DNA of 64,000 bases from Squalus acanthias (GCA_030390025.1 JASTWF010000324.1:434001-498000), one strand, 5' to 3'; shown: positions 816 to 24,358, counted from the first letter of the stretch. The notes: a model not told the origin generated them from the letters alone. Program-made: numbers and translations.

Positions 816-835
816 CATTCTTTCTTTCTTGTCTC

Positions 836-3800
836 CCCTGCGAGTGTTTGATGGGACAGTGTAGAGGGATCTTTACTCTGTATCTAACCCGTGCTGTACC
901 TGCCCTGGGAGTGTTTGATGGGACAGTGTAGAGGGAGCTTTCCTCTGTATCTAACCCGTGATGTACCTGCCCTGGGAGTGTTTGATGGGACAGTGTAGAG
1001 GGAGCTTTCCTCTGTATCTAACCCGTGCTGTACCTGGCCTGGGAGTGTTTGATGGGACAGTGTAGAGGGGGCTATACTCTGCATCATACCCGTGCTGTAC
1101 CTGCCCTGGGAGAGTTTGATGGGACAGTGTAGAGGGAGTTTTACTCTGTATCTAACCCGTGCTGTACCTGCCCTGGGAGTGTTTGATGGGACAGTGTAGA
1201 GGGAGCTTTACTATGTATCTAACGCGTGTTGTACCTGCCTTGGGAGTGTTTGATGGGGACAGTGTAGAGGGAGCTTTACGCTGTATCTAACCCGTGCTGT
1301 ACCTGCCCTGGGAGTGTTTGATGGGACAGTGTAGAGGGAGCTTTACTATGTATCTAACGCGTGTTGTACCCTCGTGTTTGTTGGGACAGGGTAGAGGGAG
1401 CTTTACACTGTATCTAACCCGTGCTGTACCTGCCCTGGGAGTGTTTGATGGGGACAGTGTAGAGGGAGCTTTACTATGTATCTATCCCGTGCTGTATCTG
1501 CCCTGGGAGTGTTTGTTGGGACAGTGTAGAGGGAGCTTTACTCTGTATCTAACCTGTGCTGTACCTGGCCTGGGAGTGTTTGATGGGACAGTGTAGAGGG
1601 AGTTTTACTCTGTATCTAACCCGTGCTGTACCTGCCCTGGGAGTTTTTGATGGGACAGTGTAGAGGGACCTTTACTCTGTATCTAACCCGTGCTGTACCT
1701 GCCCTGGGAGTGTTTGTTGGGACAGTGTAGAGGGAGCTTTACTCTGTATCTAACCCGTGCTGTACCTGGCCTGGGAGTGTTTGATGGGACAGAGTAGAGG
1801 AAGTTTTACTCTGTATCTACCCCGTGCTGTACCTGGCCTGGGTTTGTTTGATGGGACAGTGTAGAGGGACCTTTACTCTGTATCTAACCCGTGCTGTACC
1901 TGCCCTGGGAGTGTTTGTTGGGACAGTGTAGAGGGAGCTTTACTCTGTATCTAACCCGTGCTGTACCTGGCCTGGGAGTGTTTGATGGGACAGAGTAGAG
2001 GAAGTTTTACTCTGTATCTACCCCGTGCTGTACCTGGCCTGGGTTTGTTTGATGGGACAGTGTAGAGGGAGCTTTAATCTGTATCTAACCCGTGCTGTAC
2101 CTGCCCTGGGAGTGTTTGATGGGACAGTGTAGAGGGAGCTTTACTCTGTATCTAACCCCGTGCTGTACCTGCCCTGGGAGCGTTTGATGGGAAAGTGTAG
2201 AGGGAGCTTTACTCTGTATCTAACCCGTGCTGTACCTGCCCTGGGAGTGTTTGATGGGACAGTGTAGAGGGAGCTTTACTCTGTATCTAACCCGTGCTGT
2301 ACCTGCCCTGGGAGTATTTGATGGGGACAGTGTAGAGGGAGCTTTGCTCTGTATCTAACCCGTGCTGTATCTGCCCTGGGGGTGTTTGTTGGGACAGTGT
2401 AGAGGGAGCTTTACTCTGTATCTTACCCGTGCTGTACCTGCCCTGGGAATGTTTGATGGGACAGTGTAGAGGGAGCTTTACTCTGTATCTAACCTGTGCT
2501 GTACCTGCCCTGGGAGTGTTTGATGGGACAGTGTAGAGGGAGTTTTACTCTGTATCTAACCCGTGCTGTACCTGCCCTGGGAGTGTTTGATAGGACAGTG
2601 TAGAGGGACCTTTACTCTGTATCTAACCCGTGCTGTACCTGCCCTGGGAGTGTTTGTTGGGACAATGTAGAGGGAGCTTTACTCTGTATCTAACCCGTGC
2701 TGTACCTGCCCTGGGAGTGTTTGATGGGACAGTGTAGAGGGAGCTTTACTCTGTATCTAACCCGTGCTGTACCTGCCCTGGGAATGTTTGATGGGACAGT
2801 GTAGAGGGAGCTTTACTCTGTATCTAACCCGTGCTGTACCTGGCCTGGGAGTGTTTGATGGGACAGTGTAGAGTGAGCTTTCCTCTGTATCTACCCCGTG
2901 CTGTACCTGACCTGGGAGTGTTTGATGGGACAGTGTAGAGGGAGCTTTACTCTGTATCTAACCTGTGCTGTACCTGCCCTGGGAGTGCTTGATGAGACAG
3001 TGTTGAGGGATCTTTACTCTGTATCTACCCCGTGCTGTACCTGCCCTGGGAGTGTTTGATGGGACAGTGTAGTGGGAGCTTTACTCTGAATCTAACCTGT
3101 GCTGTACCTGCCCTGGGAGTGTTTGATGGGACAGTGTAGAGGGAGCTTTACTCTGTATCGATCCCTTGCTGTACCTGCCCTGGGAGTGTCTGATGTGACA
3201 GTGTAGAGGGAGCTTTACTCTGTATCTAACCCGTGCTGTACCTGCCTGGGAGTGTTTGACGGGACAGTGTAGAGGGAGCTTTACTCTGTATCTAACCCCG
3301 TGCTGTACCTGCCCTGGGTTTGTTTGATGGGACAGTGTAGAGGGAGCTTTAATCTGTATCTAACCCGTGCTGTACCTGTCCTGGGAATGTTTGATGTGAC
3401 GGTGTAGAGGTAGCATTACTCTGTACCTAACCCTGTACTGTACCTGCCCTGGGAGTGTTTTATGGGACAGTGTAGAGGGAGCTTTACTCTGTATCTAACC
3501 CCGTGCTGTACCTGCCCTGGGAGTGTTTGATGGGACAGTGTCGAGGGAGCTTTCTTCTGTATGCAACCCCGTGCTGTACCTGCCCTGGGAGTGTTTGATA
3601 GGACAGTGTAGAGGGAGCTTTACTCTGTATCTTCCCCGTGCTGTACCTGTCCTGGGAGTGTTTGATGGGACAGTGTAGAGGGAGCTTTACTCTGTATCTA
3701 ACCCCATGCTGCACCTGCCCTGGGAGTGTTTGATGGGACAGTGTAGAGGCAGTTTTCCTCTGTATCTAATCCGTGCTATACTTGCCCTGGGAGTGTTTGA

Positions 3801-4083
3801 TGGGACAGTGTAGAGGGAGCTTTACTCTGTATCTAACCTGTGCTGTACCTGCCCTGGGAGTGTTTGATGGGACAGTGTAGAGGGAGCTTTACTCTGTATC
3901 TAACCCGTGCTGTTCCTGCCCTGGGAGTGTTTGATGGGACAGTGTAGAGGGAGCTTTACTCTGTATCTAACCCGTGCTGTACCTGTCCTGGGAGTGTTTG
4001 ATGGGACAGTGTGGAGGGAGCTTTACTTTGTATCTAATCCGTGCTGTACCTGCCCTGGGAGTGTTTGATGGGACAGTGTAGAG
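836..4083 (+). repeat. 67-bp tandem satellite, about 48 units
   Basis: Unit GGGAGTGTTTGATGGGACAGTGTAGAGGGAGCTTTACTCTGTATCTAACCCGTGCTGTACCTGCCCT; period 67 (842 to 909). Confidence 0.97.
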
Positions 4084-5742
4084 TGTAGAATTCGCAATTA
4101 TCACGATTTGATTAATAAGGAGAAAACACAAAGTTTCGTTCAAACAGCTTTTATTTCAGCGGAATGCTGTCAGGTTTAAATTGGACACAAGCAGCCTGTA
4201 AAATGGCCGCCGCACCTCGTGACAGAACATTCTAGACTTTTCAACAGGCAGACAAGATGGCGTTCCAATAAACATTTTTGCAGGATCGATAACGATTCAG
4301 CACAGTGAAGACAATACACAGGACATTATGGGTTTACAGTATAAACATCGATACTGGAATCGGTCTCCCAGGTACAAAGGAAAGCCATTAAGGGCCCATC
4401 CAAAGGACATTAATATGTAAACTCCCAACGGCTCTACGATGAGAGAGCCGTTAGCAGGTAGTTATACAGGACACTTGGAAGCCCCAAACCCCTCCAGGGG
4501 GAACACCGACCGATTTAACAATGGGAGAAATATTAGCAGGTACTCAAACATTCATGAGTAGCCCCGAAACCCATTAAGGACGGAGATCACCCATACAGGA
4601 CATTTTGGGCGCCAAACCTTAAACAAAAGAATGGACATTGTAGTTGGGCGGGAAACGGAAGAACTGTGCACTATAATTGCAGGCCCAAACCGTCCATTCG
4701 CTCTCTTGCTCTTGACTCTTGCCTCGTGTTCTTGACTCTTGCCGCTTGCTGCTGTTATCATCGTGGCTGCTCCTGTGTTTTATCCGGTCGATTCGTAACC
4801 TCGTGGCTGCTCCTGTGTAAAAGACTGTTGAACTTTCTGATCCGTTCGGATCTACCTCGTGTCGCGTAAAGAAGACCTATGTTGGTAGCTGGCAGCGGAA
4901 CCAAAGGCCCGAGATGAGATGAGATGAGATGAGAGGAGAAGAGAAGAAGACCTTATCCATCGCCACGGTCAGTAAATCCCGACCGCGCCTGTAGGTCGAT
5001 CAGCCAAGTCTTCTTGACAGGAAGTTTTCTTCTTTAACAAGACATATTGCATCGATGATAACTGGACTGTGCAAACACATCGTATCAGTGATATTGACAA
5101 CGGTGCTCCACCATACCTTGTACCAACCAACAGAGGTCTTCACTACAGCGGACGGTCCAGCCGACTGACCGAGCAGCAGAAGCAGTAAACAAGTGGGACC
5201 AGGAGATCTCCTGACCAACACGTGGGTGCTGCGGTGAAAAACATCCGATCAGCTATTCGGGATTTCTCCGAGTTATTACGAGTGGTGAGCATGAGTCTCG
5301 AGATCCTACGAAGCTAGTTTAGGATAGATATTGATAGGGGAGGGTTTAAAGATTAAGGATATTTGTAATGTGTGCCCTATTTACGTTGTGCCGTTCGTTC
5401 CTCGTTTCCCTAAGAGTGATTATAACCGTTTGTAAGATTGTACTGTCATTAATCTGTGCATATGACATGTATTTCATAATTTTAAGTATCATGCAATAAA
5501 GATTTTCCATTTCGTACCGTTCAAACCAAGTCTACATGAGTTTTATCTCCATTACTGCTCTCGCATCTAAGTCCAGTGTCTAGAACCGTAAGGGAGAGTG
5601 ATTCGAACCACTCACAGGGGTGTCTAGTGTTCCCAGACTGGCTGGAGACCAGGCCTAGACCCGCACTGACATACAGGCTGCACAGAGCCGCGTGAATCTC
5701 ACAGGCTACGAGACACGCAGGGTCAGGAGAGAATCCCTTACA
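4084..5742 (+). repeat. 5' LTR of provirus 1 (1659 bp)
   Basis: Begins TGTAGAATTCGC, ends CCCTTACA; near-identical to 15149-16806. Confidence 0.97.
4600..4680 (+). promoter_or_regulatory. Putative LTR core promoter: two E2F-like sites and TATA-like TATAAT (4672-4677)
   Basis: GCGCCAAA 4609-4616, GCGGGAAA 4648-4655 and GCACTATAA are all retained in the diverged LTR of provirus 2. Confidence 0.5.
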
Positions 5743-5746
5743 GAAA

Positions 5747-7558
5747 ATGGCGACCGCGGCAGGACGCTGGCAGCGAGAGGGTAATGTGTTAGACTTTGGA
5801 ATGACTGTACGAAATGTTATGCAGGAAAAGATAGCGGATTATGTGTTTGGAAAGGTTAATCTAACTAAGAAATGGATAAGTGAATTGTTAGCGGATAAGA
5901 GCCCACTAGAGGCAGCTGAAAGGTGGACTGATAGTAAGGAGCATAAAAAGGCAGTTGAGAAAGCAGTCTGGCTTATGTGCTACAAAAGGCAGGTTCAGAT
6001 TTCAAACCAGACCATTACAGCGCTAACAGCTCGTATCAGCCATTTAGAGGGAGAAATGGAGGAGAAGGTTTCTGGAGGGGAGGTGCTCATTAAGAATTTA
6101 AATGAGTTACGCCAGGAAAGCCAGGAAGTCTCCAGTTACCTTAAAACAAGGGTAGAGTATCTCGAGTGCCAGGTCACTGAAGCAAAATTGAACGAGAGTA
6201 GGATGAAAGAAAGATGTAACCGCCAAGCTGCCCAGATAAGAACTCAAGAAGAGAGCTTAATGGGGGTTAGGTCGGCGTATAAGTTGGCCCTTGAGGATAA
6301 GTTTCAGGGAGCCGACCATAGCGCCTGCCAAAAAGAGATAGAGAGCCTCAAAAAGGCCGTGAATAATGCGAACGGCATGGTGTGCCTTATTAATCCGTCG
6401 GCACGCCAGCCGCTAGTAAATGAGAGATTTAGAAATTCCCCACCATGTAAAGCGGAAGAAGTAGTAGCCACTGCGCCCTCCGCGCCACCCAGCTATTCAG
6501 AAACCTGGGTTAGGGAGGAAGCAACGGAAGAAGCAAAAGAGCCCGTTGAAAAGGAGGTAGAAAAGGGATCGTTGTATCCAGTAACGGGTATTAAAAGGGG
6601 CCCAAGCAGAAACGGTGGGGAAGAACCGGGGGATCTCCTCGGACAGCTGGTGTTGCCTCACAGTTCACATCAGCTGAGGGCCATGATAAACCACGTAAGG
6701 AAGCTGACCGAGATAGACGACCCTTCCGTACATTTCAGGGAAGTTGAGCAAGCCGCAGCCATTAACGGCTGCGATGATGGGGAGACAGCAAAAATGCTGC
6801 TGTTCTCGTTAGATAGCTCGGTCCTTCAGTGTCTCTCAGGCGATAGCAAGAGGGGTAACAAAAGTTATGAGGAATTGAAAAATGAGGTCCTAGAAGTAGT
6901 GGGAGCGAACGACGGAGGTCCGTTTGCTAGAGTGGGACAGACAGTGCAGATGGAGGGAGAACCCCCGAAGGTTTTTGCCGACAGGCTGTGGCCAGTATAT
7001 GAGCGCAGCTGTCTAGGTGCGCCCGAGCGCGAAGATGTGGAAGGCGCCGCTTTAATTCATTGGCTTAGGTGCATAATAGCCAACAGTTTACCAGCCGTTA
7101 GAGAGCAGGCAAAAGCCTGGTTCGATCCCAATGACCTCAACCTTACGGAAGAGTCGGTCTTGAATCGACTTACGTTAGGTTACCGTAACATAAGGGGTAT
7201 GACGACACGTCCCTTTAAGGGAAGAGTACATGAGGTACGACCCGCAGCCCCGACTCAAAGAGAGTGGCATCAGGAGGGTAATCGCGCCCCACAGGCAAGT
7301 AATGCCTGTTACGGGTGTGGGAAGACAGGGCACTGGCGCAAGCACTGCAGGAACCCTTGGAAGGATTCCAAGGATAAAAATCCCGCGGTCCGAGCCCAGA
7401 CGCCTGTCCCGCCTAAGGAAGCAAAGGCACCCACCTCTCCCGAAGACCTCGAAGCAGTGTTAGGAGTCATGCGCAAGATGGTTTTGAACGCGCGTGGACA
7501 GGTGGCGGTCGCAACCGGCCCCGTAGGTGCCGCAGGACCGTCTAATAGTGCCCCATGA
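5747..7558 (+). CDS. gag: Gag polyprotein, 603 aa
   Basis: Position after PBS; N-terminal coiled-coil region; CCHC knuckle CYGCGKTGHWRKHC (~7307-7348); PSAP and PPSY late-domain-like motifs. Confidence 0.93.
   Translation: MATAAGRWQREGNVLDFGMTVRNVMQEKIADYVFGKVNLTKKWISELLADKSPLEAAERWTDSKEHKKAVEKAVWLMCYKRQVQISNQTITALTARISHLEGEMEEKVSGGEVLIKNLNELRQESQEVSSYLKTRVEYLECQVTEAKLNESRMKERCNRQAAQIRTQEESLMGVRSAYKLALEDKFQGADHSACQKEIESLKKAVNNANGMVCLINPSARQPLVNERFRNSPPCKAEEVVATAPSAPPSYSETWVREEATEEAKEPVEKEVEKGSLYPVTGIKRGPSRNGGEEPGDLLGQLVLPHSSHQLRAMINHVRKLTEIDDPSVHFREVEQAAAINGCDDGETAKMLLFSLDSSVLQCLSGDSKRGNKSYEELKNEVLEVVGANDGGPFARVGQTVQMEGEPPKVFADRLWPVYERSCLGAPEREDVEGAALIHWLRCIIANSLPAVREQAKAWFDPNDLNLTEESVLNRLTLGYRNIRGMTTRPFKGRVHEVRPAAPTQREWHQEGNRAPQASNACYGCGKTGHWRKHCRNPWKDSKDKNPAVRAQTPVPPKEAKAPTSPEDLEAVLGVMRKMVLNARGQVAVATGPVGAAGPSNSAP
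5748..5765 (+). promoter_or_regulatory. Primer binding site, tRNA-Arg(UCG)
   Basis: TGGCGACCGCGGCAGGAC is the reverse complement of GTCCTGCCGCGGTCG+CCA, recalled as a vertebrate tRNA-Arg(UCG) 3' end; 5 nt after the LTR. Confidence 0.85.
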
Positions 7559-10500
7559 CTAGAACCAGCACAGCCCGTCTACCTGTGTCCGCTCAGCTAT
7601 GATGCGTGGAGGCGACCTGTGGTGGAGATGGAGGTAGAGAAACAAAAGGGCAGTTATTTGTTGGACACGGGAGCTTCTTGCACCATAATCCATACAGATG
7701 ACCCTTTTGACTCGCCGCTATCTACCAAGGTCCCATTCACGCTAGCAGGGTTCACAGGGAAAGAACAGGCTGGCACGTTTTCCCTCCCGCTATCCATTCG
7801 TTTAGGAACACTTCGCCTTAAGTGGAAGTGTATACTGATGGCATGGCAAAAGGGGGGTGGAAGAGGTATTCTCGGGTCCGATCTGCTAGCGGGACACGGG
7901 ATCCTCGTGGACCTCAGAAATCACTGTCTCTGGGGGGCTAAAGGTGAAAAAGGCGAGGTAATGGTGATTCAAGGGGAGGAAGAAACAGGGGTCCTGTGTA
8001 CCGTACAGCCATCCGGAGGCTACGACCTCAGGCTTATGGTCGCAGATGTCCCAACGGACATGCAAACGTACGTGACAGATAATATGCACGCGTTTGCAAC
8101 CCACAAGCACGATTGTGGGAGGGTGGTCGGGTTTGAGGTCAGCGTAGATGGGGACCCCATGACCCGACCCCAAAAGCAGTATAACTTCCCCAAAGAAGCA
8201 GAACCCGATATGGAGGCAGCAATGTCTTCCTTGGTGCAGCAGGGCGTGTTGAGGCCGATAGCCACACACGTGAACTCCCCATTATGGCCGGTTAGGAAGC
8301 CGGATAATTCGTGGAGAGCCACGGTGGACTACAGAGTCCTTAACAGTAACATTCCCGCCTGCGCGCCCACAGTAGCAGCAGTTGCTGACCTAATAGGGAG
8401 CATCCCAGCGTCCGCGACCACGTTCACGGTGCTGGATATCTCGAACGGTTTTTGGTCCATCCCGCTGCGGCGAGAGGACCAGTACAAGTTTGCCTTTACG
8501 TTTAAAGGGCAACAGTACACGTGGAACTGTTTGCCACAGGGTTTCCACAATAGCCCCAGTATTTTTCACCAGTGTATGGCAGGAAGTTTAAAGGAGTTTA
8601 GTCAGCCCAATCAGATAGTACAGTATGTGGATGATTTGCTCCTATTTACGGACTCAAGGGAGGAGCACGGACCACTACTGGACGAGTTATTGGAGCTGTT
8701 AGCGAGAAAGGGTTTTAAAGTAAACCCAAAGAAAGCACGTATCGGTCAGCAGGAAGTAAAATTCCTGGGACTGACCCTACGCGCTGGGGAAAGAGCCATA
8801 GACAAAGCAAGGAGGGAGTCGGTGCAAGAATTACCGATTCCCAACAACGTAAGGGGTGTGAGGTCCTTCTTGGGACTGACCGGTTACTGCAGGGATTTTA
8901 TCGAGGATTATGCGGCCACAGCGGCGCCGCTCCTCCGACTCCTCCATAAGGGGGTAGAGTGGCTTTGGGACGAGGGCTGCCAAGCAGCCTTCGAGAAGTT
9001 AAAAAGGGATCTGCAGACCGCGCCAGCCTTAGGGGCCATAGATGGGGGGAAGGAGTTTTTCCTGGAGGTAGCTGCCAGCGGAGACAGCTTAAGCGCCGTG
9101 CTGCTCCAAGAGCGTCACGGCAAGCTGAGGCCGGTTGTCTATTCATCCAGGGTATTAACGGATGTGGAGAGAAGTTTCTCCAATTGCGAAAGGCACCTTT
9201 TAGCCACGCATTGGGCTGTGAAAAGATCAGCGATCTTCACAGGGCTCTCTCCCATCACTCTCCTCACACATCACACACCAACTAAGATGCTTCTGGATGG
9301 GAGGATTAAAGACGGGACCGTAAGCAGCGCACGCATTGCGCGTTGGACCCTTCTTCTCTCCCAGTTGGATCTTAGAGTAAAAGGTCTTTGCGAGCCCAGG
9401 CTTGCGGCCAATTTGGTATACCCCGGTACAGCCCACCGGTGTTCGGTGGAAGGGGTGTGGGACGTCAACATAGGTTTACGGGCCGGGATACATCCCACTG
9501 GGCGCGAGATTTATGTTGATGGGTCTAGCACAGTGTCTGCTGGCGAGCGACTCACAGGGTGTGGAGTTTATGACCCTGCGGCAGACCTTGCCCTGGCGAT
9601 CAAGCTCCCTAGCACCATGAGCGCGCAGCAAGCTGAGCTGTCTGCCGTGGTGTACGTGGTAACCCACCCAGACATTTTCCCAACCCCATACACGATTTGC
9701 TCGGACAGTATGTTCACCTGCAATTCGTGTACGGAATACCTGGCCATTTGGTCCCGCCGTGGATACACCTCCGCGGACGGGCGACCTTTAACGGTGAAGC
9801 CCTTGCTGGAAAAGATCTTAGCAGCAGCAGTAGGGGAGGAAGGGGAGATTTTCATCCATAAGGTGAAAGCTCACTCCTCCACAGAGCCCCGTGGGGAGGG
9901 CAACCGGCAGGCGGATGCGCTAGCCAGGGAGGGTGCCCGCGACGGTACTTTCTGGAACCCCTATAGAACCGGACCCATAGCAGCGGTCCGAGGTGGGGAC
10001 GGGAATACCGGGAACACCAGGGTAGCATTGCCCCTAGACCTTAAGACCGTCCAAGCCCAGGATCCCGCCCTAAAAGCAGTCCTAAAAACGATTGCTGAGG
10101 GGAGGCAGGTAGAAGGTCCGTACAGTACGGCAACCCTCTCAGTTAAGGAAGGCATGCTGTTCCGCGAGGAGCAGTGGGTTGTGCCGCAGCAGCACAGGAG
10201 GGAATTCCTCCAGTTGGCTCACGAGGGACCAGGGGCAGGGCACCCCGGGCCCGAGGTTACCTGGCAACGGGTAGAGCAAGCGGGATGGTGGCCAGGGCTC
10301 AGGGAACAAGTCCGCGAGTTCTGTGCAAACTGTCTTGTGTGCGCTGCAAACAACCCAGACCCCCAGAAAAGGAAGGTGCCCATGGGACACGTAAGAAGGG
10401 TAGAGGGACCATGGCAGTCGATACAGATCGACTATATAGGACCCCTGCCCACCACCCAGGGAGGTTATAAGTACTGCCTCGTCCTGGTGGATGTGTTTTC

Positions 10501-12106
10501 CAAGTGGGTGGAAGCCTTCCCTTGTCGAACAGCTACGGCACTGGGTACAGCAAAAATCTTGGTCCGGGAAGTGTTCTCGCGGTGGGGACTCCCCCGTTTC
10601 GTGGAGTCAGACCAAGGGAGTCATTTCACCGGCCAGGTGATGCAGAACACCCTCATGCTTTTGGGCATTGAAGGGAAGTGGCACGTAGCACACAATCCCC
10701 AGTCATCCGGGATTGTTGAGCGTATGAACCGGACCCTGAAGGAGAAATTGAGGAAAGAGACTAGGAACTCGCCCCAAAAATGGGCGGAAGTTCTGCCTTT
10801 AGTCCTCATGGGGGTCCGGGCCAGTCAGTCAAAAAGTACGGGGTACTCCCCGCACGAGGTAATGACCGGCAGGCTCATGCGAACCCCCACCCATGTGCTA
10901 GCCCCGGTGCTCACTGAGGGTCAGCTTCAAGAGATCAGCAGGGACAAGTTCGCCCAAACTCTCTTGGAGCGCCTGAAGCAAGTTTATGAGCAGGCGGCTG
11001 GGAACATGGGAAGGCAGCATCAGGGCAATCGCTTGTTGCTGGAACCCCGCAAAACGCGGGAGTGGGAAGTAGGAGACCAGGTCATGGTCAGAAACTACGC
11101 CAGAGTAGGGAGTCTGGAACCACTGTATATGGGACCCTACAACATTGTAGACAAGGCAAGTCCCATGGTTTACGCCGTAAAAGTACCTCGGCGCACTAAG
11201 TGGTTCCACATAAACCAATGTAAACTGTACCAGCCGGGTGCGCAAGGGAAAACTACAGGGGTAAATCCCGCCAATGGGAAAACACAGCCCCAGGTAGGAC
11301 CACAAGGCACACAGGCAGGCGTAGCAGCTTGCATCAGGGGAAGGGACATCCCGGACGATCATGCAGCGTTTTTCTGGAGTTGGGGGTTAGATGACGAGGA
11401 CCCCAGGGTACCCTGGTCAGATGAGGATAGTGCAGATGAGCATAGTGATGATGACGGGTGGTTCCTGAGGAACGGTCTGGGAGGATTGGGGCCGATAGGT
11501 AGAGATCCATACGGGGTGGACACACAAGCTGCAGGTCCCGACAACAGGAGGGAGGAGCTAGAGGAGGCCGGGCCAGCCGCTATGTGGTTCCCAGAGGTGT
11601 GGCCGCCCGCTTTGAACGTCCAGTCCTCAGGGGAGGCAGAGTTCACGAGTGAAGGGCCGCCTGCTGGGCCGAGCAGGGCGGGGCCACGAACTGCCAGCCC
11701 CGAGGTTAGGGAGGCGGAGTCAGCGGAGGCGGAGCTGGCGACTGTGATGGAACCCCAGGTCATCCCGTTGGAGGTCTCGGAACCCGGTCCGTCCGTCACG
11801 GAGCCCCCGCCCATAGCAACTCCCCGTAGGTCAAGCAGAGTACCCCAGCCCAGGAGGATGTGGTCAGGTCCACAGACTGCCCCAAGGCGTAAGTTTCAGG
11901 TTAAGATAACCCGGGTAGAGACAGGCCACATCGCAGCAGTAACAGGCTGCGGCAGATCAGAGGAAAGGGTCAGCGCAGCAACAGGCTGCGGCAGATCAGA
12001 GGGAAGGGTCAGTGCCCTCCCACCGTCGGGAAGAGCTCGCAGCAGCCTTCTCAGATTTAAAGGGGCCGCCCTGAGAACGGGCGGCACTGTAAAGTTATTA
12101 GTTTAA
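7559..12106 (+). CDS. pol: Pol (protease, RT, degenerate tether RNase H, RNase H, integrase, long C-terminal tail), in frame with gag
   Basis: LLDTGAS (~7664); LPQGFHNSP and YVDD (8624-8635); IYVDGS..AELSA..SDS..GNRQAD RNase H; HHCC, D-D-E and GPY integrase motifs; no stop from 7559 to the end. Confidence 0.96.
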   Translation, partial: LEPAQPVYLCPLSYDAWRRPVVEMEVEKQKGSYLLDTGASCTIIHTDDPFDSPLSTKVPFTLAGFTGKEQAGTFSLPLSIRLGTLRLKWKCILMAWQKGGGRGILGSDLLAGHGILVDLRNHCLWGAKGEKGEVMVIQGEEETGVLCTVQPSGGYDLRLMVADVPTDMQTYVTDNMHAFATHKHDCGRVVGFEVSVDGDPMTRPQKQYNFPKEAEPDMEAAMSSLVQQGVLRPIATHVNSPLWPVRKPDNSWRATVDYRVLNSNIPACAPTVAAVADLIGSIPASATTFTVLDISNGFWSIPLRREDQYKFAFTFKGQQYTWNCLPQGFHNSPSIFHQCMAGSLKEFSQPNQIVQYVDDLLLFTDSREEHGPLLDELLELLARKGFKVNPKKARIGQQEVKFLGLTLRAGERAIDKARRESVQELPIPNNVRGVRSFLGLTGYCRDFIEDYAATAAPLLRLLHKGVEWLWDEGCQAAFEKLKRDLQTAPALGAIDGGKEFFLEVAASGDSLSAVLLQERHGKLRPVVYSSRVLTDVERSFSNCERHLLATHWAVKRSAIFTGLSPITLLTHHTPTKMLLDGRIKDGTVSSARIARWTLLLSQLDLRVKGLCEPRLAANLVYPGTAHRCSVEGVWDVNIGLRAGIHPTGREIYVDGSSTVSAGERLTGCGVYDPAADLALAIKLPSTMSAQQAELSAVVYVVTHPDIFPTPYTICSDSMFTCNSCTEYLAIWSRRGYTSADGRPLTVKPLLEKILAAAVGEEGEIFIHKVKAHSSTEPRGEGNRQADALAREGARDGTFWNPYRTGPIAAVRGGDGNTGNTRVALPLDLKTVQAQDPALKAVLKTIAEGRQVEGPYSTATLSVKEGMLFREEQWVVPQQHRREFLQLAHEGPGAGHPGPEVTWQRVEQAGWWPGLREQVREFCANCLVCAANNPDPQKRKVPMGHVRRVEGPWQSIQIDYIGPLPTTQGGYKYCLVLVDVFSKWVEAFPCRTATALGTAKILVREVFSRWGLPRFVESDQGSHFTGQVMQNTLMLLGIEGKWHVAHNPQSSGIVERMNRTLKEKLRKETRNSPQKWAEVLPLVLMGVRASQSKSTGYSPHEVMTGRLMRTPTHVLAPVLTEGQLQEISRDKFAQTLLERLKQVYEQAAGNMGRQHQGNRLLLEPRKTREWEVGDQVMVRNYARVGSLEPLYMGPYNIVDKASPMVYAVKVPRRTKWFHINQCKLYQPGAQGKTTGVNPANGKTQPQVGPQGTQAGVAACIRGRDIPDDHAAFFWSWGLDDEDPRVPWSDEDSADEHSDDDGWFLRNGLGGLGPIGRDPYGVDTQAAGPDNRREELEEAGPAAMWFPEVWPPALNVQSSGEAEFTSEGPPAGPSRAGPRTASPEVREAESAEAELATVMEPQVIPLEVSEPGPSVTEPPPIATPRRSSRVPQPRRMWSGPQTAPRRKFQVKITRVETGHIAAVTGCGRSEERVSAATGCGRSEGRVSALPPSGRARSSLLRFKGAALRTGGTVKLLV

Positions 12107-12350
12107 GGTTTTAAGTTTATAGTTCAAGGTTAAGTTTTAAGTTTATAGTTCAAGGTTAAGTTTTAAGTTTTAATAAGGTTAAGTTTGTAGTGTTTTTAAC
12201 AGATAACGATAAAATGATGGGAGTTTTAAGGCTAGGTTTAGAGGAAGTCTATTCAGCAAACGTTGAAGTTTACGTGAGGCGAGGTCAGGGGACCCGCTCA
12301 CCCTTCACAAAAGCCAGAGACTTTTTGCGAGGCTGGCTACCTCATTCTAT

Positions 12351-12361
12351 CTGATCACAGG
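12351..12361 (+). promoter_or_regulatory. Putative env splice acceptor (...TTCTATCTGATCACAG/G)
   Basis: CAG/G 13 nt upstream of the env ATG; identical in provirus 2. Confidence 0.5.
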
Positions 12362-12373
12362 AACCAAGGAAGG

Positions 12374-14725
12374 ATGGAACGACTTATAGTATTGCTCGTG
12401 GCAATCGGATGTGGATTGGCCTATCGAGGCCACACCAAGGATGTCGTGGTGTTTGGATGTTCCGGGGACACGGCCCCCATCGCGGTGGATGGGACCGGAA
12501 GACGGAAGGCAGAGGGGACCAGCACCTATTTCCACAAGGGAAGGTGGCCAGGATGGCTGGGAACGAACTCAACGGAGTATTCCAGCACATCGGGGTTCGC
12601 CTACAAAGAGACTTCTTTAATGTGCCCCAAAGTACGGATCATCGCACCCAGGATCAGCGTCACCGTCGGCAAACGGATTTGTTTGACCTGCAGTGGGGAT
12701 GTCCCATTGAGCCGATGGTGGTGGCTGCGAAAGCTGAGCAAAACTATGAGGAACTCTTCGGTTGAGTGGGAGCGACTGGGTAATAATACCCATCGGACAA
12801 TTACGGGGACAGATGGACAAGTGAAAGTCTGTTGGGACAAATGGTGGGAACCGGATGAGGGGATTTATGTTTGTATGTGGGGGTCAAAGTACGTTTGCCC
12901 CAAAGGCATCTCCATATTCTTTATTAACCAGTGGCAGGATAACGGACAGGGGATGAGGTGGGATGCGAGCACCAGGGGGTGCGGAGCCCCATACTCTCCG
13001 ATCCCAGTAAATGCCACTGAGCTCATTACGCGCCCACGCAAAGCCCCGCCCACGATTCCGGTAGTTCTAACTGAGGAAGAAGGGTGCCCTAAAACTAGTA
13101 AGGGACCCGGGAACGGTTTGGTACTGGTCCCCACAGACCAGATACTATTTCAGGGGGTACATTACGCGGTGGCCTCGGTGATTTTAAATCTCACTGAGGT
13201 ACGGTTACCAGAGTGGTGCCCCAAAAAGACGGAACAGTTGTACCAGGTCCTGTTGACCAAGATGTTCAGGCAATTTTACGAGTTTGATTTTGCAGAAATT
13301 GATAAGACAAGTTTGTACACCGCACCGCAGGAAGTTTTGGATCAAGTAGGGAGGCAAAGAAGGGGTTTGGTGAACGATGCGTTCACTGCTTTTAACACAG
13401 GGACATCTGTGGTCAACGCTCTAGACAGTGTGGAGCTGCAGACCCAGATTAATGGTTTAAAAACACAGTTAAAAGACATTCTAACAGATGAGAATAAAGT
13501 GGTAGGGTCGGGTCTGCACGAGGACCAAGCCATGACTCTCCATTTAAAGGAAATCATAGCAGAGCTGGAGAAACATGCGCGTACGGTAAATGCCCTGATT
13601 AGGGAAGATCGGAATGCATCCGATCAGGCTGCGCAGAACGAGGTGTGCGTGCTTTACGGGGCGTGGTTACTGGGCGAGGGCCGCAGTAATTTGGAGGATT
13701 TAAAACAAGGTTTGGTTCCGTCCTGGATAAGTAACAAACACCTGCGGGCGCTCCACCCTTTTCAGAACGCATTAAGTCCGTGCCAGCTCAGGCTAGCTTC
13801 AGAAGCTTACCCAGTCCCCGTGGACTGCGGACGTTCAAACCATACTATTATGGGAATAGTATTACGCATGCCGGTTTTGGGCAACACAGCAAAGCCCGCC
13901 CCGGTGTATCGGGTAGAGAACATTGGTGTCATTCAGGGGGGAGCCCACATTCGTTATGCAGCGGTTCCACCTTACGTCATCCGCTGGGAGCAAACGATGA
14001 CAGGTACAGATCTCTCTGGTTGTCGTGGCAGGGGAGCACACATAATACTGTGCCCCCAGCACTTGAATGCCTTTTTAACACCACAGTGCGGGTTCAGAAC
14101 GGCTGGCGCCAAGTCCATGAATTGCACCATGGAGGCAATGGCCCAAGATCATGTGCCTCCGCAGGTAGCATACATCGGGGGTGGAACATATTGTGTTACC
14201 ACTGCAGCGCAACACTACCAGCATGGAAACCGTAGCCGGTGTCCGGTGAGTGACAGCAGTTTCTGTTTTAAACCCAGGGCTGAAGTTCAAGTAGCACAAC
14301 AGCGAATTATCCCAATCCCTGAACCATCCACTGTTCATCTCACAGTAAAAGAGAATTTCACCGACTTGCAGCGATTTGTCGCGCATTTTGGATACCTCAT
14401 TCCCCCTCTCCCTGAGCATTTAACCAAACTTCTGAAAGCCGTCGCGGTGTCACAAAAGCATTTTTATACCTTAGAGCAGAAAACTGTCGAGATAGGTACA
14501 GACATTTTGGACATAGTGGTTCCACCGTGGTGGAATCTGTTCACGAATATTGAAGTGCCCTCATGGGTCAGAATAGCCTCCCACATTTTAGTCGTCTGTC
14601 AAGTGTTTATTGTAGTATACCTATTGTTCATACATTGTAAAAGAGACAAGCGCCTCACCAAGCATGAGAACACGGGAGAGTGGCGAGAACGTTACGTGCG
14701 CGTGCACGACGAGAGCGCAGTGTAA
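12374..14725 (+). CDS. env: Envelope glycoprotein, 783 aa, class I fusion-type
   Basis: Signal peptide MERLIVLLVAIGCGLA; furin site RQRR (~13352-13363) followed by fusion-peptide/heptad region; Cys-rich ectodomain; N-glycosylation sequons; TM helix near C-terminus. Confidence 0.93.
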   Translation: MERLIVLLVAIGCGLAYRGHTKDVVVFGCSGDTAPIAVDGTGRRKAEGTSTYFHKGRWPGWLGTNSTEYSSTSGFAYKETSLMCPKVRIIAPRISVTVGKRICLTCSGDVPLSRWWWLRKLSKTMRNSSVEWERLGNNTHRTITGTDGQVKVCWDKWWEPDEGIYVCMWGSKYVCPKGISIFFINQWQDNGQGMRWDASTRGCGAPYSPIPVNATELITRPRKAPPTIPVVLTEEEGCPKTSKGPGNGLVLVPTDQILFQGVHYAVASVILNLTEVRLPEWCPKKTEQLYQVLLTKMFRQFYEFDFAEIDKTSLYTAPQEVLDQVGRQRRGLVNDAFTAFNTGTSVVNALDSVELQTQINGLKTQLKDILTDENKVVGSGLHEDQAMTLHLKEIIAELEKHARTVNALIREDRNASDQAAQNEVCVLYGAWLLGEGRSNLEDLKQGLVPSWISNKHLRALHPFQNALSPCQLRLASEAYPVPVDCGRSNHTIMGIVLRMPVLGNTAKPAPVYRVENIGVIQGGAHIRYAAVPPYVIRWEQTMTGTDLSGCRGRGAHIILCPQHLNAFLTPQCGFRTAGAKSMNCTMEAMAQDHVPPQVAYIGGGTYCVTTAAQHYQHGNRSRCPVSDSSFCFKPRAEVQVAQQRIIPIPEPSTVHLTVKENFTDLQRFVAHFGYLIPPLPEHLTKLLKAVAVSQKHFYTLEQKTVEIGTDILDIVVPPWWNLFTNIEVPSWVRIASHILVVCQVFIVVYLLFIHCKRDKRLTKHENTGEWRERYVRVHDESAV

Positions 14726-15136: not shown

Positions 15137-15148
15137 AACAGGAGGGAC
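15137..15148 (+). promoter_or_regulatory. Polypurine tract (short)
   Basis: AACAGGAGGGAC immediately before the 3' LTR TG. Confidence 0.7.
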
Positions 15149-16806
15149 TGTAGAATTCGCAATTATCGCGATTTGATTAATAAGGAGAAAACACAAAGTT
15201 TCGTTCAAACAGCTTTTATTTCAGCGGAATGCTGTCAGGTTTAAATTGGACACAAGCAGCCTGTAAAATGGCCGCCGCACCTCGTGACAGAACATTCTAG
15301 ACTTTTCAACAGGCAGACAAGATGGCGTTCCAATAAACATTTTTGCAGGATCGATAACGATTCAGCACAGTGAAGACAATACACAGGACATTATGGGTTT
15401 ACAGTATAAACATCGATACTGGAATCGGTCTCCCAGGTACAAAGGAAAGCCATTAAGGGCCCATCCAAAGGACATTAATATGTAAACTCCCAACGGCTCT
15501 ACGATGAGAGAGCCGTTAGCAGGTAGTTATACAGGACACTTGGAAGCCCCAAACCCCTCCAGGGGGAACACCGACCGATTTAACAATGGGAGAAATATTA
15601 GCAGGTACTCAAACATTCATGAGTAGCCCCGAAACCCATTAAGGACGGAGATCACCCATACAGGACATTTTGGGCGCCAAACCTTAAACAAAAGAATGGA
15701 CATTGTAGTTGGGCGGGAAACGGAAGAACTGTGCACTATAATTGCAGGCCCAAACCGTCCATTCGCTCTCTTGCTCTTGACTCTTGCCTCGTGTTCTTGA
15801 CTCTTGCCGCTTGCTGCTGTTATCATCGTGGCTGCTCCTGTGTTTTATCCGGTCGATTCGTAACCTCGTGGCTGCTCCTGTGTAAAAGACTGTTGAACTT
15901 TCTGATCCGTTCGGATCTACCTCGTGTCGCGTAAAGAAGACCTATGTTGGTAGCTGGCAGCGGAACCAAAGGCCCGAGATGAGATGAGATGAGATGAGAG
16001 GAGAAGAGAAGAAGACCTTATCCATCGCCACGGTCAGTAAATCCCGACCGCGCCTGTAGGTCGATCAGCCAAGTCTTCTTGACAGGAAGTTTTCTTCTTT
16101 AACAAGATATTGCATCGATGATAACTGGACTGTGCAAACACATCGTATCAGTGATATTGACAACGGTGCTCCACCATACCTTGTAGCCAACCAACAGAGG
16201 TCTTCACTACAGCGGACGGTCCAGCCGACTGACCGAGCAGCAGAAGCAGTAAACAAGTGGGACCAGGAGATCTCCTGACCAACACGTGGGTGCTGCGGTG
16301 AAAAACATCCGATCAGCTATTCGGGATTTCTCCGAGTTATTACGAGTGGTGAGCATGAGTCTCGAGATCCTACGAAGCTAGTTTAGGATAGATATTGATA
16401 GGGGAGGGTTTAAAGATTAAGGATATTTGTAATGTGTGCCCTATTTACGTTGTGCCGTTCGTTCCTCGTTTCCCTAAGAGTGATTATAACCGTTTGTAAG
16501 ATTGTACTGTCATTAATCTGTGCATATGACATGTGTTTCATAATTTTAAGTATCATGCAATAAAGATTTTCCATTTCGTACCGTTCAAACCAAGTCTACA
16601 TGAGTTTTATCTCCATTACTGCTCTCGCATCTAAGTCCAGTGTCTAGAACCGTAAGGGAGAGTGATTCGAACCACTCACAGGGGTGTCTAGTGTTCCCAG
16701 ACTGGCTGGAGACCAGGCCTAGACCCGCACTGACATACAGGCTGCACAGAGCCGCGTGAATCTCACAGGCTACGAGACACGCAGGGTCAGGAGAGAATCC
16801 CTTACA
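15149..16806 (+). repeat. 3' LTR of provirus 1 (1658 bp)
   Basis: Direct repeat of 4084-5742. Confidence 0.97.
16559..16564 (+). terminator. Putative poly(A) signal AATAAA in the 3' LTR (5' copy at 5495-5500)
   Basis: Conserved in the provirus 2 LTR (TTTATT at 21981-21986). Confidence 0.65.
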
Positions 16807-16850
16807 AGAGGGAGCTTTACTCTGTATCTAACCCGTGCTGTATCTAACCC
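16807..16850 (+). repeat. 44-bp remnant of the 67-bp satellite between the two proviruses
   Basis: AGAGGGAGCTTTACTCTGTATCTAACCCGTGCTG plus a duplicated TATCTAACCC. Confidence 0.9.
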
Positions 16851-19959: not shown

Positions 19960-21759
19960 TCAGAAGTCCGGGTTGCATGGGGCTGTTGCTACCTTCCCGT
20001 GCAAAATCATGAGAGACCGCATGGCTCCTAACATTGATTCGATCGCATCGGGATGGATAGGTGCACCAGCTCCCCTATCAGAGACAGGCGCCTGGGCTCG
20101 GACTGCGGGATTTTTATCCCTGGACTCCTTCCAAGGGTTCCTGCAGTTCTTGCGCCAGTGCCCTGTTTTTCCGCATCCGAAACAAGCATTACTGGCCTGT
20201 GGGACGCGATTTCCCTCCTGATGCCACTCCTTTTGAGCCGGGGCTGTGGGCCGCGCCTCATGCACCTTACCCTTAAGGGGACGTGCTCCCGCACTCCTGG
20301 TATTACGGTACCCTACCGTGAGTCGATTTAGGACCGACTCCTCTGTTGTGGCGGGGTTAATGGGATCAAACCACGTTTTGGCCTGCTCCCTCACGGCTGG
20401 TAAGCTGTTGGCTACTATACATCTGAGCCAGTGAGCTAAACCAACGGCGTCTAAATCAACGCGCTCGGGCGCGCCTGGGCAACTACGCTGATAGACAGGC
20501 CACAGCCTGTCGGCGGAAACCTTCGGGGGTTCTCCCTCCATCTGCATAGTCTGTCCCAATCTAACGAACGGACCTTCGTCGTCCGCCCCCAACACTTCCA
20601 GGACCTCATCTCTTAACTCCTCATAGGTCCTATTACCCCTTTTGCTCACGTCTGAGAGACACTGGAGGATCGAGCTGTCTAAAGAGAACAGCAGCATTTT
20701 TGCCCTTTCCCCATCGTCGCAGCCGTTAATGGCTGCGGTCTGCTCTACCTCCCTGAAATGTACGGAAGGGTCGTCTGACTCGGACAGCTTCCGTACGTGG
20801 CTAATCATAGCCCTCAGCTGGTGTGCGCTGTGAGGCAACACAAGCTGGTTGAGGAGATTCCCCTCTTCCCCATTGTCTCCCTCCGGGCCCCTCTTGATAC
20901 CCGTAAGTGGGCACAACGCTCCCGGCTTCACCACTACTTTAGGGGGCTGTCCTACCTCGGGGACCTCTTCCTCTACTTCTACCACTTCCTTCCTTACCCA
21001 GGTTGCCGAATAGCTGGGTGGCGCGGAGGGCACAGTGGCAAATACCTCCTCTGCTTTGTTCGGTGGGGATTTCTGAAATTCCCCACCCACCGGCGGCTGG
21101 TGTGCTGACGGGCTGATAAGGCACACCATGCCGTGCGCTTTGTTCAGGGCCTCTTTAAGGTTCCCTATCTCTCTTTGGCAGACGCTGTGATCGGCCCCCT
21201 CATGTTTATCCTCGAGGGCCATCTTATATGCCGCCCTAACCCCCTTTAAGCTCTCTTCCTGGGCTTTTATTTGAGCAGCTAGGCGGGCACATCGCTCCCT
21301 TATTCTGCCCTCATTTAATTTTGCCTCAGTGACCTGGCACTCGAGGTAATCTATTTTCGCCTTATGGTGGTTGGCGACTAACTGGCGTTCTTGATGCAAC
21401 GCATTTAAAGACGCGATGAGCTGCTGCCCCCCTGCGACCTTCTCGTCCATTTCCACCTCTAAACCCTTGATCTGAGCTGCCTGCGCTATGATGACCTGGT
21501 CCGAAAGCTGGACTTGCCTTTTATAACACATCAGCCAGACCGCTTTCTCTACAGATTTTTTATGTTCCTTGCTGCCTGTCCACCTCACGGCTGCCTCTAG
21601 TGGACGCTTATCCACCAGCAGGTCACTTATCCATCTCTTAGTCAAATTCACTTTTCCAAAAACATAATCGGCTATTCTCTCTTCCATAACATTTCGCCCA
21701 TTCATACCAGGGTCTAACACATTATTTTCTCGCTGCCAGTGTCCCTTCGTGGTCGCCAT
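19960..21759 (-). CDS. gag: Gag polyprotein, 599 aa, open
   Basis: Collinear homolog of 5747-7558; CFGCGKTGHWRKNC knuckle. Confidence 0.92.
   Translation of the reverse strand: MATTKGHWQRENNVLDPGMNGRNVMEERIADYVFGKVNLTKRWISDLLVDKRPLEAAVRWTGSKEHKKSVEKAVWLMCYKRQVQLSDQVIIAQAAQIKGLEVEMDEKVAGGQQLIASLNALHQERQLVANHHKAKIDYLECQVTEAKLNEGRIRERCARLAAQIKAQEESLKGVRAAYKMALEDKHEGADHSVCQREIGNLKEALNKAHGMVCLISPSAHQPPVGGEFQKSPPNKAEEVFATVPSAPPSYSATWVRKEVVEVEEEVPEVGQPPKVVVKPGALCPLTGIKRGPEGDNGEEGNLLNQLVLPHSAHQLRAMISHVRKLSESDDPSVHFREVEQTAAINGCDDGERAKMLLFSLDSSILQCLSDVSKRGNRTYEELRDEVLEVLGADDEGPFVRLGQTMQMEGEPPKVSADRLWPVYQRSCPGAPERVDLDAVGLAHWLRCIVANSLPAVREQAKTWFDPINPATTEESVLNRLTVGYRNTRSAGARPLKGKVHEARPTAPAQKEWHQEGNRVPQASNACFGCGKTGHWRKNCRNPWKESRDKNPAVRAQAPVSDRGAGAPIHPDAIESMLGAMRSLMILHGKVATAPCNPDF
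21741..21758 (-). promoter_or_regulatory. Primer binding site, second tRNA-Arg(UCG) isodecoder
   Basis: + strand GTCCCTTCGTGGTCGCCA, recalled as another vertebrate tRNA-Arg(UCG) 3' end plus CCA. Confidence 0.85.
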
Positions 21760-21763
21760 TATC

Positions 21764-23394
21764 TGTAAGGGGTTTCGGGTGGCTCTGTGCTTAGCCTGGG
21801 TGCTAGTGCGGGGTTAGGCCTTGTTGCCTGTTCTGGTCTCCAGCCAGCCTGGTAACACTAGACACCTGTGAGTGGTTCGACCCACTTGCCCTTACGGTTC
21901 TGACACTGGACTTAGGTGCGAGAGCAATAATGCAGAGAAAACTCAGGTAGACCCGGTTGAATAGTGCGAAATGGAAAATCTTTATTGCATATTATTCAAG
22001 ACTACGAAATACATGTCATAAGCACAGATTAATGACAGTACAAACTTATATACATTTATGCAACTAGGTTTAGGGAAACGAGGAGCGCACGACACATCGT
22101 AAAAGGGGACACACATTATAATTATCCTTAAAACTTAAACCCTCCCCTATCAATACCTGTCCTAATCTAGATTTGTAGGATCGAGACTCATGCTCACCAC
22201 TCGTGATAACTCGGAGAATTCCGAAACTCTGCTCGGATGTTTTTACCGCAGCACCTGACTATCCACGTGTTGATCAGGGGTCTCTGTACCCCACTTGTTT
22301 GCTCGCTTCTGCTCCGGCTAGCAGGCTGGACTGTCTGCTGTCATGAAGATCTGTGTTGTCCTCGGAACTCTGACAAAACTCAAAGAAGAGTCTTCCTATG
22401 CCCGGCACCCGTTAGCCGGTAAAATTCAAAGAAGAGTCTTTTCGGACCAACACCAGTTGTGGAGTAGCCGATAGAATTCGAAGAAATGGTCCTTATATTT
22501 AGAGGCGCAGTCGGGGTTTACTGACCGTGGCGATACGTATTGTCGTCTTCTTCTCTTCTCATCTCATCTCATCTCATCTCCTCTCGGGCCTTCGGTTCCA
22601 ACACCGTTTACCGACTTCTCGGGATGGTGCGCCCACTTCCAGGTCTTCGCAGCCCAGTTCTCCACAGATCTTCGCGGCAAGCCACGAGGTTGATCCTGGC
22701 GGATCAGAGTCCAGAGTCGTCAGGCAGTTCAGCAGCCTTCCAGCGAGTCAAAGCAGCAAGAGAGAGATGGGCGGTTGTACTTTACAGTTATAGTGCTGTA
22801 ATTCCTATTTTCCCGCCCAATCTTAATGTCTATCTTTTGTCATGTTTTGGCGCTCAAAACTTCTTGTATGGGGTGATCTCAGTCTTTAATGGGTTACGGT
22901 GATACTTGTAACTGTCTGAGTACCCGTTAATATTTCTCCCATTGTGGAACCGGTTAGTAGTCTCCCTGGAGGGGTTTTGGGGCTTCCAAATGCTTGCTGT
23001 GAGTACCCGCGAACGGCTCTCTCATCGTAGAGCCGTGGGGAATTTGCATATCAATGTCTTTGGATGGGTCCTTGATCGCTCAGTACAATAGCCCTCGTTT
23101 GTACCTGGAAAACCGATTCCAGTATTTATGTTTGAAATGCAAACCCATCGCGTCTTGTCATTATCTCAAATGTGCTGAGTCCTGTCCGATCTTGCTGAAA
23201 TGTTTATTGAAACGCCATCTTGTCTGCCTACTGAAAGTCTAGAACATTCTGCCACGAGGCGTGGCGGCCATTTTACAGGCTGTTTGTGTCCGTTTTGAAA
23301 CCTGACAGCATTCTGCTGAAATAAAGCTGTTTGTACGAAACTTTTTGTCTCCTTCTCATTATTATAAAATCGCGATAATTTTGCGAATTCTACA
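21764..23394 (-). repeat. 5' LTR of provirus 2 (1631 bp)
   Basis: Minus strand begins TGTAGAATTCGC and ends CCTTACA; diverged homolog of the provirus 1 LTR. Confidence 0.93.
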
Positions 23395-24101
23395 GCTGTA
23401 CCTGCCCTGGGAGTGTTTGATGGGACAGTGTAGAGGGAGCTTTATTCTGTATCTAATCCGTGCTGTACCGCCCTGCGAGTGTTTGATGGGACAGTGTAGA
23501 GGGAGCTTTACTCTGTAACTAATCCGTGCTGTACCTGCCCTGGGAGTGTTTGATGGGACAGTGTAGAGGGAGTTTTACTCTGTAACTAATCCGTGCTGTA
23601 CCTGCCCTGGGAGTGTTTGATGGGACAGTGTAGAGGGAGCTTTACTCTGTATCTAACCCGTGCTGTACCTGCCCTGGGAGTGTTTGATGGGACAGTGTAG
23701 AGGGAGCTTTTCTCTGTATCTAATCCGTGCTGTACCTGCCCTGGGAGTGTTTGATGGGACAGTGTAGAGGGAGCTTTACTCTGTATCTAACCCATGCTGT
23801 ACCTGCCCTGTGAGTGTTTGATGGGACAGTGTAGAGGGAGATTTACTCTGTATCTAACCCGTGCTGTACCTGCCTTGGGAGTATTTGATGGGACAGTGTA
23901 GAGGGAGCTTTACTCTGTATCTAATCCGTGCTGTACCTGCCCTGGGAGTGTTTGATGGGACAATGTTGAGGGAGCTTTACTCTGTATCTAACCCGTGCTG
24001 TACCTGCCCTGGGAGTGTTTGATGGGACAGTGTAGATTGAGCTTTACTCTGTATCTAATCCGTGCTGTACCTGCCCTGGGAGTGTTTGATGGGACAGTGT
24101 A
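23395..24101 (+). repeat. 67-bp satellite, continuation of the array
   Basis: Same unit as 836-4083. Confidence 0.96.
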
Positions 24102-24358
24102 TAGAGAGAGCAACTATCAGAGAGAGAGAGACAATGTGTGAGAGAGAGAGGGAGTGTGAAAACAGAGAGAAACCGAAAAGGTGACCAATAGAGAAGGGGT
24201 ATAAAGGAGCAGAATTGATACAGAGGCAGAGAGAAGGAGGGATATAGTAAATAGGAGATTGGGAGTGAGAGAGGGAGTGACAGCAAGAGGGTTCATCAAA
24301 GGACGAGCGAGGGACAGATGAGAGGAGCAGAGAAAAAGAGAGAAGTGCGAGACAGGTT

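Follow-up and report, generated by a model that had tools for sequence, protein, structure and literature searches.

In Ty1, the primer binding site (PBS) lies inside the GAG frame and its primer-complementary bases double as codons; as described in PMC4974528, the site is internal to GAG, pairing with the acceptor stem of the initiator tRNA-Met is limited to 10 bases, and the PBS does not form the start codon. Alternative tRNA priming is written into the PBS of HIV-1 and SIV and was found at 0.52% in HIV plasma (PMC6450007). In mouse ETn/MusD elements, PBS alleles with two mismatches persist beside perfect ones, within a PBS located in the 5' UTR (PMC7472051). In foamy viruses, the LTR itself houses the major splice donor, which precedes the poly(A) signal (PMC3694450). 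Snakehead retrovirus (SnRV) joins gag and pol by readthrough of a UAG stop codon, and its PBS is separated from gag by a non-coding region (PMC12193657). SnRV-like endogenous retroviruses are also on record from coelacanth, from amphibians and from elephant shark (PMC4977317).

The window, i.e., the whole stretch of 64,000 nucleotides of Squalus acanthias DNA analyzed here (host genome, 3.7 Gb), holds two proviruses, the second inverted relative to the first. The LTR pair of provirus 1 differs by 2 substitutions and 3 gap columns, gag, pol and env are all open, and the provirus is young. Provirus 2 retains an open gag, lacks most of pol and the 3' LTR, and has an env that is cut short. The Gag proteins of the two proviruses are about 70% identical. 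Both are embedded in a 67-base satellite (833-4083, 16807-16842, 23395-24108), and the satellite between the 3' LTR of provirus 1 and the point where the env of provirus 2 breaks off measures only 36 bases. In provirus 2, the remnant that lies between gag and env contains short internal duplications at 19063-19374 and 19735-19889.

Features of the two proviruses, with positions counted from the first base of the window
Feature	Position	Strand	Remarks
5' LTR, provirus 1	4084..5742	+	TG...CA ends; target-site duplication AGAG (4 bases)
Splice donor GTGAGC	5285..5290	+	Inside LTR, upstream of poly(A) signal and PBS; motif in 55 of 57 parsed loci
Probable poly(A) signal AATAAA	5495..5500	+	Putative function, from sequence
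Spacer LTR-PBS, provirus 1	5743..5747	+	5 bases, GAAAA
Probable gag start codon, provirus 1	5747..5749	+	Spacer A + TG of PBS
PBS1	5748..5765	+	18 bases; read as gag codons 1-7
Met25	5819..5821	+	Invariant in close homologues; rival or second start codon
gag frame, provirus 1	5747..7558	+	603 codons, one Cys-His box; stop UGA then CUA
pol frame, provirus 1	7559..12106	+	Continues the frame of gag; Pfam domains protease, RT, tether, RNase H and integrase
env splice acceptor	12359..12361	+	13 bases before env ATG
env frame, provirus 1	12374..14725	+	783 codons, own ATG; RQRR site at residue 327
3' LTR, provirus 1	15149..16806	+	Purine tract before it, ~15137-15147
gag frame, provirus 2	19960..21759	-	599 codons; stop UGA then CUG
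gag ATG + PBS2, provirus 2	21741..21759	-	ATG 21759-21757, PBS2 21758-21741
Spacer, provirus 2	21763-21759	-	GATAA
5' LTR, provirus 2	21764..23394	-	

Provirus 1 has the hallmarks of a retrovirus: TG...CA LTRs with a short duplication, an 18-base tRNA PBS, a purine tract, and gag, pol and env with the Pol domains listed above. The nearest named Gag homologues are from skate and catshark. Pol contains a tether and RNase H; beyond a copy at 90% identity, its nearest database relatives are coelacanth and frog proteins at about 50%, and a tree of database homologues only (without SnRV) placed the element near these proteins, at an open fork. The best PDB matches were RTs of gammaretroviral and foamy type, ahead of Ty3. 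Among the 50 BFVD matches listed, the best identity was with Q88285 (45% over 231 columns), which we take to be SnRV Gag-Pol. The shark element has an arginine tRNA primer; SnRV, in work attributed to Hart et al. in 1996, reportedly has an arginine primer too, as well as a coiled coil in Gag. When compared by eye, the RT motifs were closer to the SnRV row than to the single Loki row seen in the PMC7947760 supplement, and the shark element shares both these motifs and a gag-pol junction crossed by stop-codon readthrough with SnRV, although its stop is UGA rather than UAG. Judged from its sequence, the element is probably an SnRV-like retrovirus. Unlike SnRV, it has a frame that is open from the PBS ATG onwards, a contrast with the non-coding region noted in PMC12193657 that holds only if initiation occurs at 5747.

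A placement among the lokiretroviruses is less favored, as the RT motifs differ, by eye, from the one Loki row seen in PMC7947760. That study found 0 of 3 chondrichthyan genomes positive; it also describes the features that lokiretroviruses share with the shark element, namely the gag-pol-env order, the tether with RNase H, an RXKR-type site in Env and, possibly, a likeness of Env to F proteins. Regarding the latter, searches for paramyxovirus or pneumovirus F (PF00523) gave no match of the shark Env in Pfam or in the PDB, the first match in the ESM Atlas was Fusion glycoprotein F0 (score 0.93, 207/256 features), and the single-sequence model of Env had a pLDDT of 32. Gag carries a Cys-His box (CX2CX4HX4C), which the definition of spumaretroviruses does not allow for. 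Likewise, foamy-type Gag is described in PMC5210030 as lacking such a box, whereas the shark Gag has one and pol follows gag in frame. No related loci were found in metagenome or viral contigs, and none of the 8 metagenome pattern matches encodes a Gag relative.

The original prediction proposed that the gag ATG at 5747 is composed of the last A of the spacer and the TG of the PBS, in a strong Kozak context, and that provirus 2 is built the same way. Both statements hold. The ATG at 5747 (aaaATGg) opens the 603-codon frame with the Cys-His box, the ATG at 21759 (ataATGg) opens 599 codons, and the N-termini are MATAAGR and MATTKGH, as predicted, both followed by WQRE. The layout was found in all 30 loci closest to provirus 1 and in the 27 loci that could be parsed of the 30 closest to provirus 2. 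However, an A before TGG is common at other arginine PBS sites, and thus the ATG alone means little: among 100 listed of 371 such sites with spacers of 1-4 bases, 74 have this A (counted by hand, one site being listed twice), and 14 have a shared spacer ending in T. These 371 sites represent further LTR-like elements of the host genome that use the same arginine primers. Across lineages of the family studied here, the first G and the last A of the spacer are fixed and positions 2-3 vary. The A of the ATG is kept in 759 of 764 copies, and its loss (5/764) did not differ significantly from the loss of the spacer G (9/773, p 0.42).

The claim that each PBS matches the 3' end of a different tRNA-Arg(UCG) isodecoder is borne out by the host genome: PBS1 and PBS2 match the genes L061 and L071, respectively, with 0 mismatches, and each has 4 mismatches to the tRNA gene of the other. 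The predicted duplexes with the cognate tRNAs reach -41.5 and -37.8 kcal/mol, compared to -27 to -28 kcal/mol for the crossed pairs. PBS1 followed by the T-loop continuation gave 429 matches in the host genome. Of those inspected, L061 is a tRNA-Arg(UCG) gene without an intron, and three loci in arrays read as Arg(UCG) genes that contain one; PBS2 with its continuation occurs in one place only, the Arg(UCG) gene L071. A host tRNA-Arg(CCG) gene, L092, provides a third exact PBS match. The six tRNA-like sites that were fetched comprised one Arg(CCG), two that were Thr and Ser, and three that were not tRNAs. No tRNA gene was found within the window. The U5 region contains a heptamer (5603..5609, + strand) complementary to bases 52-58 (T loop) of the primer tRNA, which is also found in provirus 2. 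It is held in a short U5 hairpin (5596-5613) located 144 bases upstream of the ATG, or 121 bases in provirus 2. Folding of U5 with the leader returned no helix around the AUG common to both proviruses.

The host arrays deserve a separate description. Hundreds of tRNA-Arg(UCG) 3' ends lie in 1.6-kb tandem arrays (L062-L070; G000:C26, ~39-42 Mb). In the three loci examined, the Arg(UCG) genes carry an insertion of 10-17 bases after the anticodon and stand beside tRNA-Ser(GCU) genes. To our knowledge, introns in Arg(UCG) genes are unusual.

A survey using a pattern that left the PBS free recovered 764 copies of the family, 100 of which, as listed, were tallied by hand. Among these 100, 47 were of the PBS1 type, 44 of the PBS2 type and 6 carried a variant of PBS1 with two mismatches, while 1 was half-way between this variant and PBS1, and 2 were of a fourth type. 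The spacer GAAAA accompanied PBS1 in 47 of 47 of the listed copies and a spacer other than GAAAA accompanied PBS2 in 36 of 44 (Fisher p 6e-18, taking copies as independent although they are related). The two main PBS types thus appear to be mostly inherited lineage traits that are not freely swapped, lineages being told apart here by a few flanking bases. The interpretation given in the original prediction is partly supported: distinct PBS alleles match host tRNAs, but PBS1 and PBS2 are largely linked to the spacer lineage.

The fourth type is the exact complement of Arg(CCG) L092. It occurs in 4 of the 764 copies, which represent three spacer and downstream backgrounds, each of them PBS2-like. 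Three specific positions set it apart from PBS2, a combination expected from chance mutation with a probability of about 1e-4, and it would encode MATQMG. These four copies provide what we regard as direct evidence, at the sequence level, that priming by another tRNA rewrites these codons, in about 0.5% of copies, and their simplest reading would be repeated priming by the wrong tRNA that was copied into the provirus. The idea that Gag residues 2-6 switch with primer choice is thereby narrowed: the Arg(CCG) complement speaks for it, but the main types mostly follow lineage and, as residues 2-3 are identical under all three arginine primers, only residues 4-5 vary. The two-mismatch allele had no host tRNA match with the T-loop continuation (in an assembly that may be incomplete), changes codons 6-7, and persists in 6 of the 100 listed copies and in 4 of the 30 loci closest to provirus 1. 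This persistence indicates that correction of the PBS by the primer is incomplete.

In these respects the family resembles HIV-1 and SIV, in which near-cognate tRNAs prime now and then, with 0.52% in HIV plasma and 0.52% (4/764) in the shark family. It departs from HIV in that the HIV PBS is non-coding, whereas the change in the shark element would recode Gag residues 4-5 and is fixed as germline copies. The persisting two-mismatch alleles recall those of mouse ETn/MusD, although the shark mismatches, unlike those in the 5' UTR described in PMC7472051, also alter codons.

Mixtures of PBS type and downstream background could alternatively reflect recombination between co-packaged lineages instead of primer switching, which we consider a real if tentative possibility. 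Among the 100 listed copies, PBS1 keeps GAAAA in 47 of 47 while the downstream bases vary, and copies with a family-2-like downstream region and the GAAAA spacer comprise 7 PBS1 and 6 PBS2 (tallied by hand). Recombination may well be the source of the PBS1/PBS2 mosaics. It cannot explain the Arg(CCG) allele, which has no abundant donor lineage and is found in four copies on three backgrounds.

Taken together, we lean towards an explanation in which the absence of a PBS-gag gap, a start codon built by the PBS and rare near-cognate priming combine to recode Gag, and as a whole we consider it reasonably probable. According to this explanation, a lineage of shark and skate retroviruses would pass from PBS to gag without any untranslated gap. 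The gag start codon would consist of the last base of the spacer and the TG that complements the CCA end of the tRNA, and the +4 base of the Kozak context would be the G derived from the primer. The PBS would encode residues 2-6 of a tolerant N-terminal leader of 24 residues, with the conserved body of Gag starting from Met25. Normally the PBS would select its matching tRNA, and the two Arg(UCG) types would therefore be inherited stably within lineages. On rare occasions an arginine tRNA of near-cognate type would prime, its 3' end would be copied into one DNA strand, and a new provirus recoded at residues 4-5 would result. Finally, a start codon within the PBS would imply that env mRNA is spliced from an upstream LTR donor, as in foamy viruses. 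We infer the copying step from what is established for retroviruses, and likewise deduce that the position of the donor is linked to the overlap.

This explanation depends on where Gag starts. Initiation at 5747, alone or together with Met25, is likely in view of the homologues. The skate proteins P0001, P0152 and P0154 begin with MATTKGH, and the catshark-type proteins P0002, P0005, P0007 and P0157 begin with MATAAG or MATAVG; in both groups the conserved Met stands exactly at position 25. Identity of Gag is 50% for skate P0001 and 35% for catshark-type P0002, and residues 9-24 have diverged, with a compensated shift of one codon that keeps the 24-codon spacing in P0002. The chance of the segment being both open and in frame in both outside lineages is about 0.02 (a rough estimate), while for the two window proviruses by themselves an absence of gaps would be no surprise (P 0.35). 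Of 57 parsed loci, 56 have codons 1-24 open. The more remote Gag-like proteins (P0014, P0021, P0024, P0025 and P0026), examined as protein records, have no arginine-PBS peptide at their start. In the ENA record P0155, residues 1-26 show an open frame that extends upstream of the PBS peptide, its last residues being Leu-His-Met. To judge from the protein, this would fit an LTR end followed by a 2-base spacer; the ATG may thus survive a change of spacer length.

Two downstream methionines had been named as rival starts by the original prediction. Met19 is absent from the skate and catshark homologues, but Met25 (NVM) is a strong rival. If Gag starts at Met25, then the PBS ATG would be a by-product of an A-rich spacer before TGG, the 72 bases up to Met25 would be a conserved RNA element for packaging or dimerisation, and PBS switching would be real but neutral to the protein. 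Several observations fit this reading. Met25 is invariant and strong conservation begins there, its context is fair to strong with a purine at -3 in both proviruses, and ATGG is common at other arginine PBS sites. Furthermore, a coding-type pattern is absent from codons 8-24: between proviruses 1 and 2 they show 3 synonymous and 6 replacement changes (pS 0.27, pN 0.15), against 28 and 9 in codons 25-84 (pS 0.80, pN 0.06; p 0.04 for the contrast). The pattern looks like constraint at the RNA level and not at the protein level, i.e., an RNA element under weak protein constraint. The peptide with which the homologue P0003 begins is unrelated and lies 14 residues ahead of its counterpart of Met25, and the skate record P0153 starts at Met25, so neither starts at the PBS, database N-termini being predictions that favor the first ATG. 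In snakehead retrovirus, moreover, non-coding sequence sets the PBS apart from gag (PMC12193657). Against a start at Met25 alone stands the exact, stop-free spacing of 24 codons in three divergent lineages, compared to 9 gaps in the ~459 bases of R-U5 of the two window proviruses. In addition, the ATG with the better context would be the first one reached by a scanning ribosome, followed, ahead of Met25, by two out-of-frame ATGs (+37 and +67) that are present in both proviruses. We therefore regard the Met25 reading as unlikely, though deserving of attention, and keep initiation at 5747 as the preferred one. If Gag did start at Met25, only ordinary alternative priming would remain.

The splicing pattern touches on the same question. 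A GT..AG joint from 5284 to 12361 was found in one contig of one of four runs (X2), the RNA status of which is a guess. The four runs consist of contigs giving no start site, strand or level, and none of the 14 runs listed is labelled RNA. The donor of this env joint lies 462 bases upstream of the gag ATG, and because it is upstream of the PBS, env mRNA would skip the PBS ATG, as an active start codon at that place would require. The unspliced RNA contains 6-9 ATGs between the donor and the gag ATG (55 loci counted), which makes plain scanning doubtful.

Gag could accordingly start at 5747 from a spliced mRNA, a refinement of the main explanation that we find improbable. The LTR donor would be joined to an acceptor TTACAG, formed by the end of the LTR and the fixed spacer G, three bases before the ATG; this would remove U5 with the upstream ATGs and separate message from genome. 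The part removed would contain every one of the 6-9 upstream ATGs counted, and the same donor appears to serve env. The G after the LTR CA is kept in 764 of 773 copies, its changes are scattered, and the next two bases vary by lineage; however, integration could be the reason why this G is fixed. The four runs, whose contigs are short, list no joint of this kind, the pyrimidine tract is short with purine-rich upstream bases in provirus 1, and the residues LH before the Met of P0155 suggest, from the protein only, that no AG is present there.

Least probable is the proposal that the overlap serves as a regulatory switch, in which the primer tRNA or its 3' fragments cover the UG and positions +4 to +18 and move the RNA from translation to packaging, or allow the host to repress Gag. 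The geometry allows it, as the cognate duplex is predicted at -38 to -42 kcal/mol and the bases before the AUG are predicted to be unpaired. Primer annealing needs Gag/nucleocapsid and occurs during assembly. Annealing at that stage would lock the choice rather than trigger it, making it a consequence more than a trigger. In mice, 3' tRNA fragments lower ERV RNA and protein via the PBS (PMC7472051), but this repression acts on PBSs in ordinary 5' UTRs and needs no overlap. The two-mismatch allele that persists without a host tRNA match (6 among the 100 listed) is also in keeping with masking, being comparable to the mouse mismatch alleles in that source. We are similarly doubtful that the start context and the first Gag codons can be reset from host tRNA at each reverse transcription, with annealing over the AUG and the upstream donor deciding between translation and packaging.

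The preferred reading, with a start codon formed by the PBS, differs from Ty1 (as described in PMC4974528) in that the full 18-base PBS supplies two of the three bases of the start codon and its alleles match three host tRNAs. A PBS inside gag is known from Ty1 and alternative priming is known from HIV; a vertebrate retroviral start codon formed by the PBS and combining both appears to be new. No description of a gag start codon overlapping the PBS was found in the literature searched, most subscription journals and repeat databases being outside its scope. The layout itself is real and, to judge from protein records, conserved across sharks and skates. If the explanation is true, it represents a natural case of host non-coding RNA copied into viral coding sequence, and a lineage without a PBS-gag gap would need other solutions for packaging, for splicing and for initiation. 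As the family comprises several hundred young copies with four distinct PBS alleles, alternative priming and PBS correction can be counted in a germline, and a direct test can be made of whether tRNAs or tRNA fragments bound over the start codon block initiation.

Other observations concern the LTRs and the remaining genes. In the 1.66-kb LTR (4084-5742), a single box of TATATA/TATAAA type was found, at 4340; with the poly(A) signal at 5495, R would have to be very long. The distance from the LTR CA to the PBS is 5 bases (5743-5747), compared to only 1 or 2 from the purine tract to the TG of the 3' LTR (15146-15148); the two ends of the unintegrated DNA would differ, and integrase would have to trim a U5 overhang of unusual length. 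The gag stop codon (7556-7562, + strand; 19962-19956, - strand), which shares its frame with pol, reads UGA CUA in provirus 1 and UGA CUG in provirus 2; UGA CUA is a type II readthrough context known from Sindbis virus (PMC13517186). Env is more conserved than Gag between the two proviruses (91% vs 70%; 12374-14725 against 16846-18579), as it is in comparison to skate, with 79% for Env (part of the protein, P0158) vs 50% for Gag.
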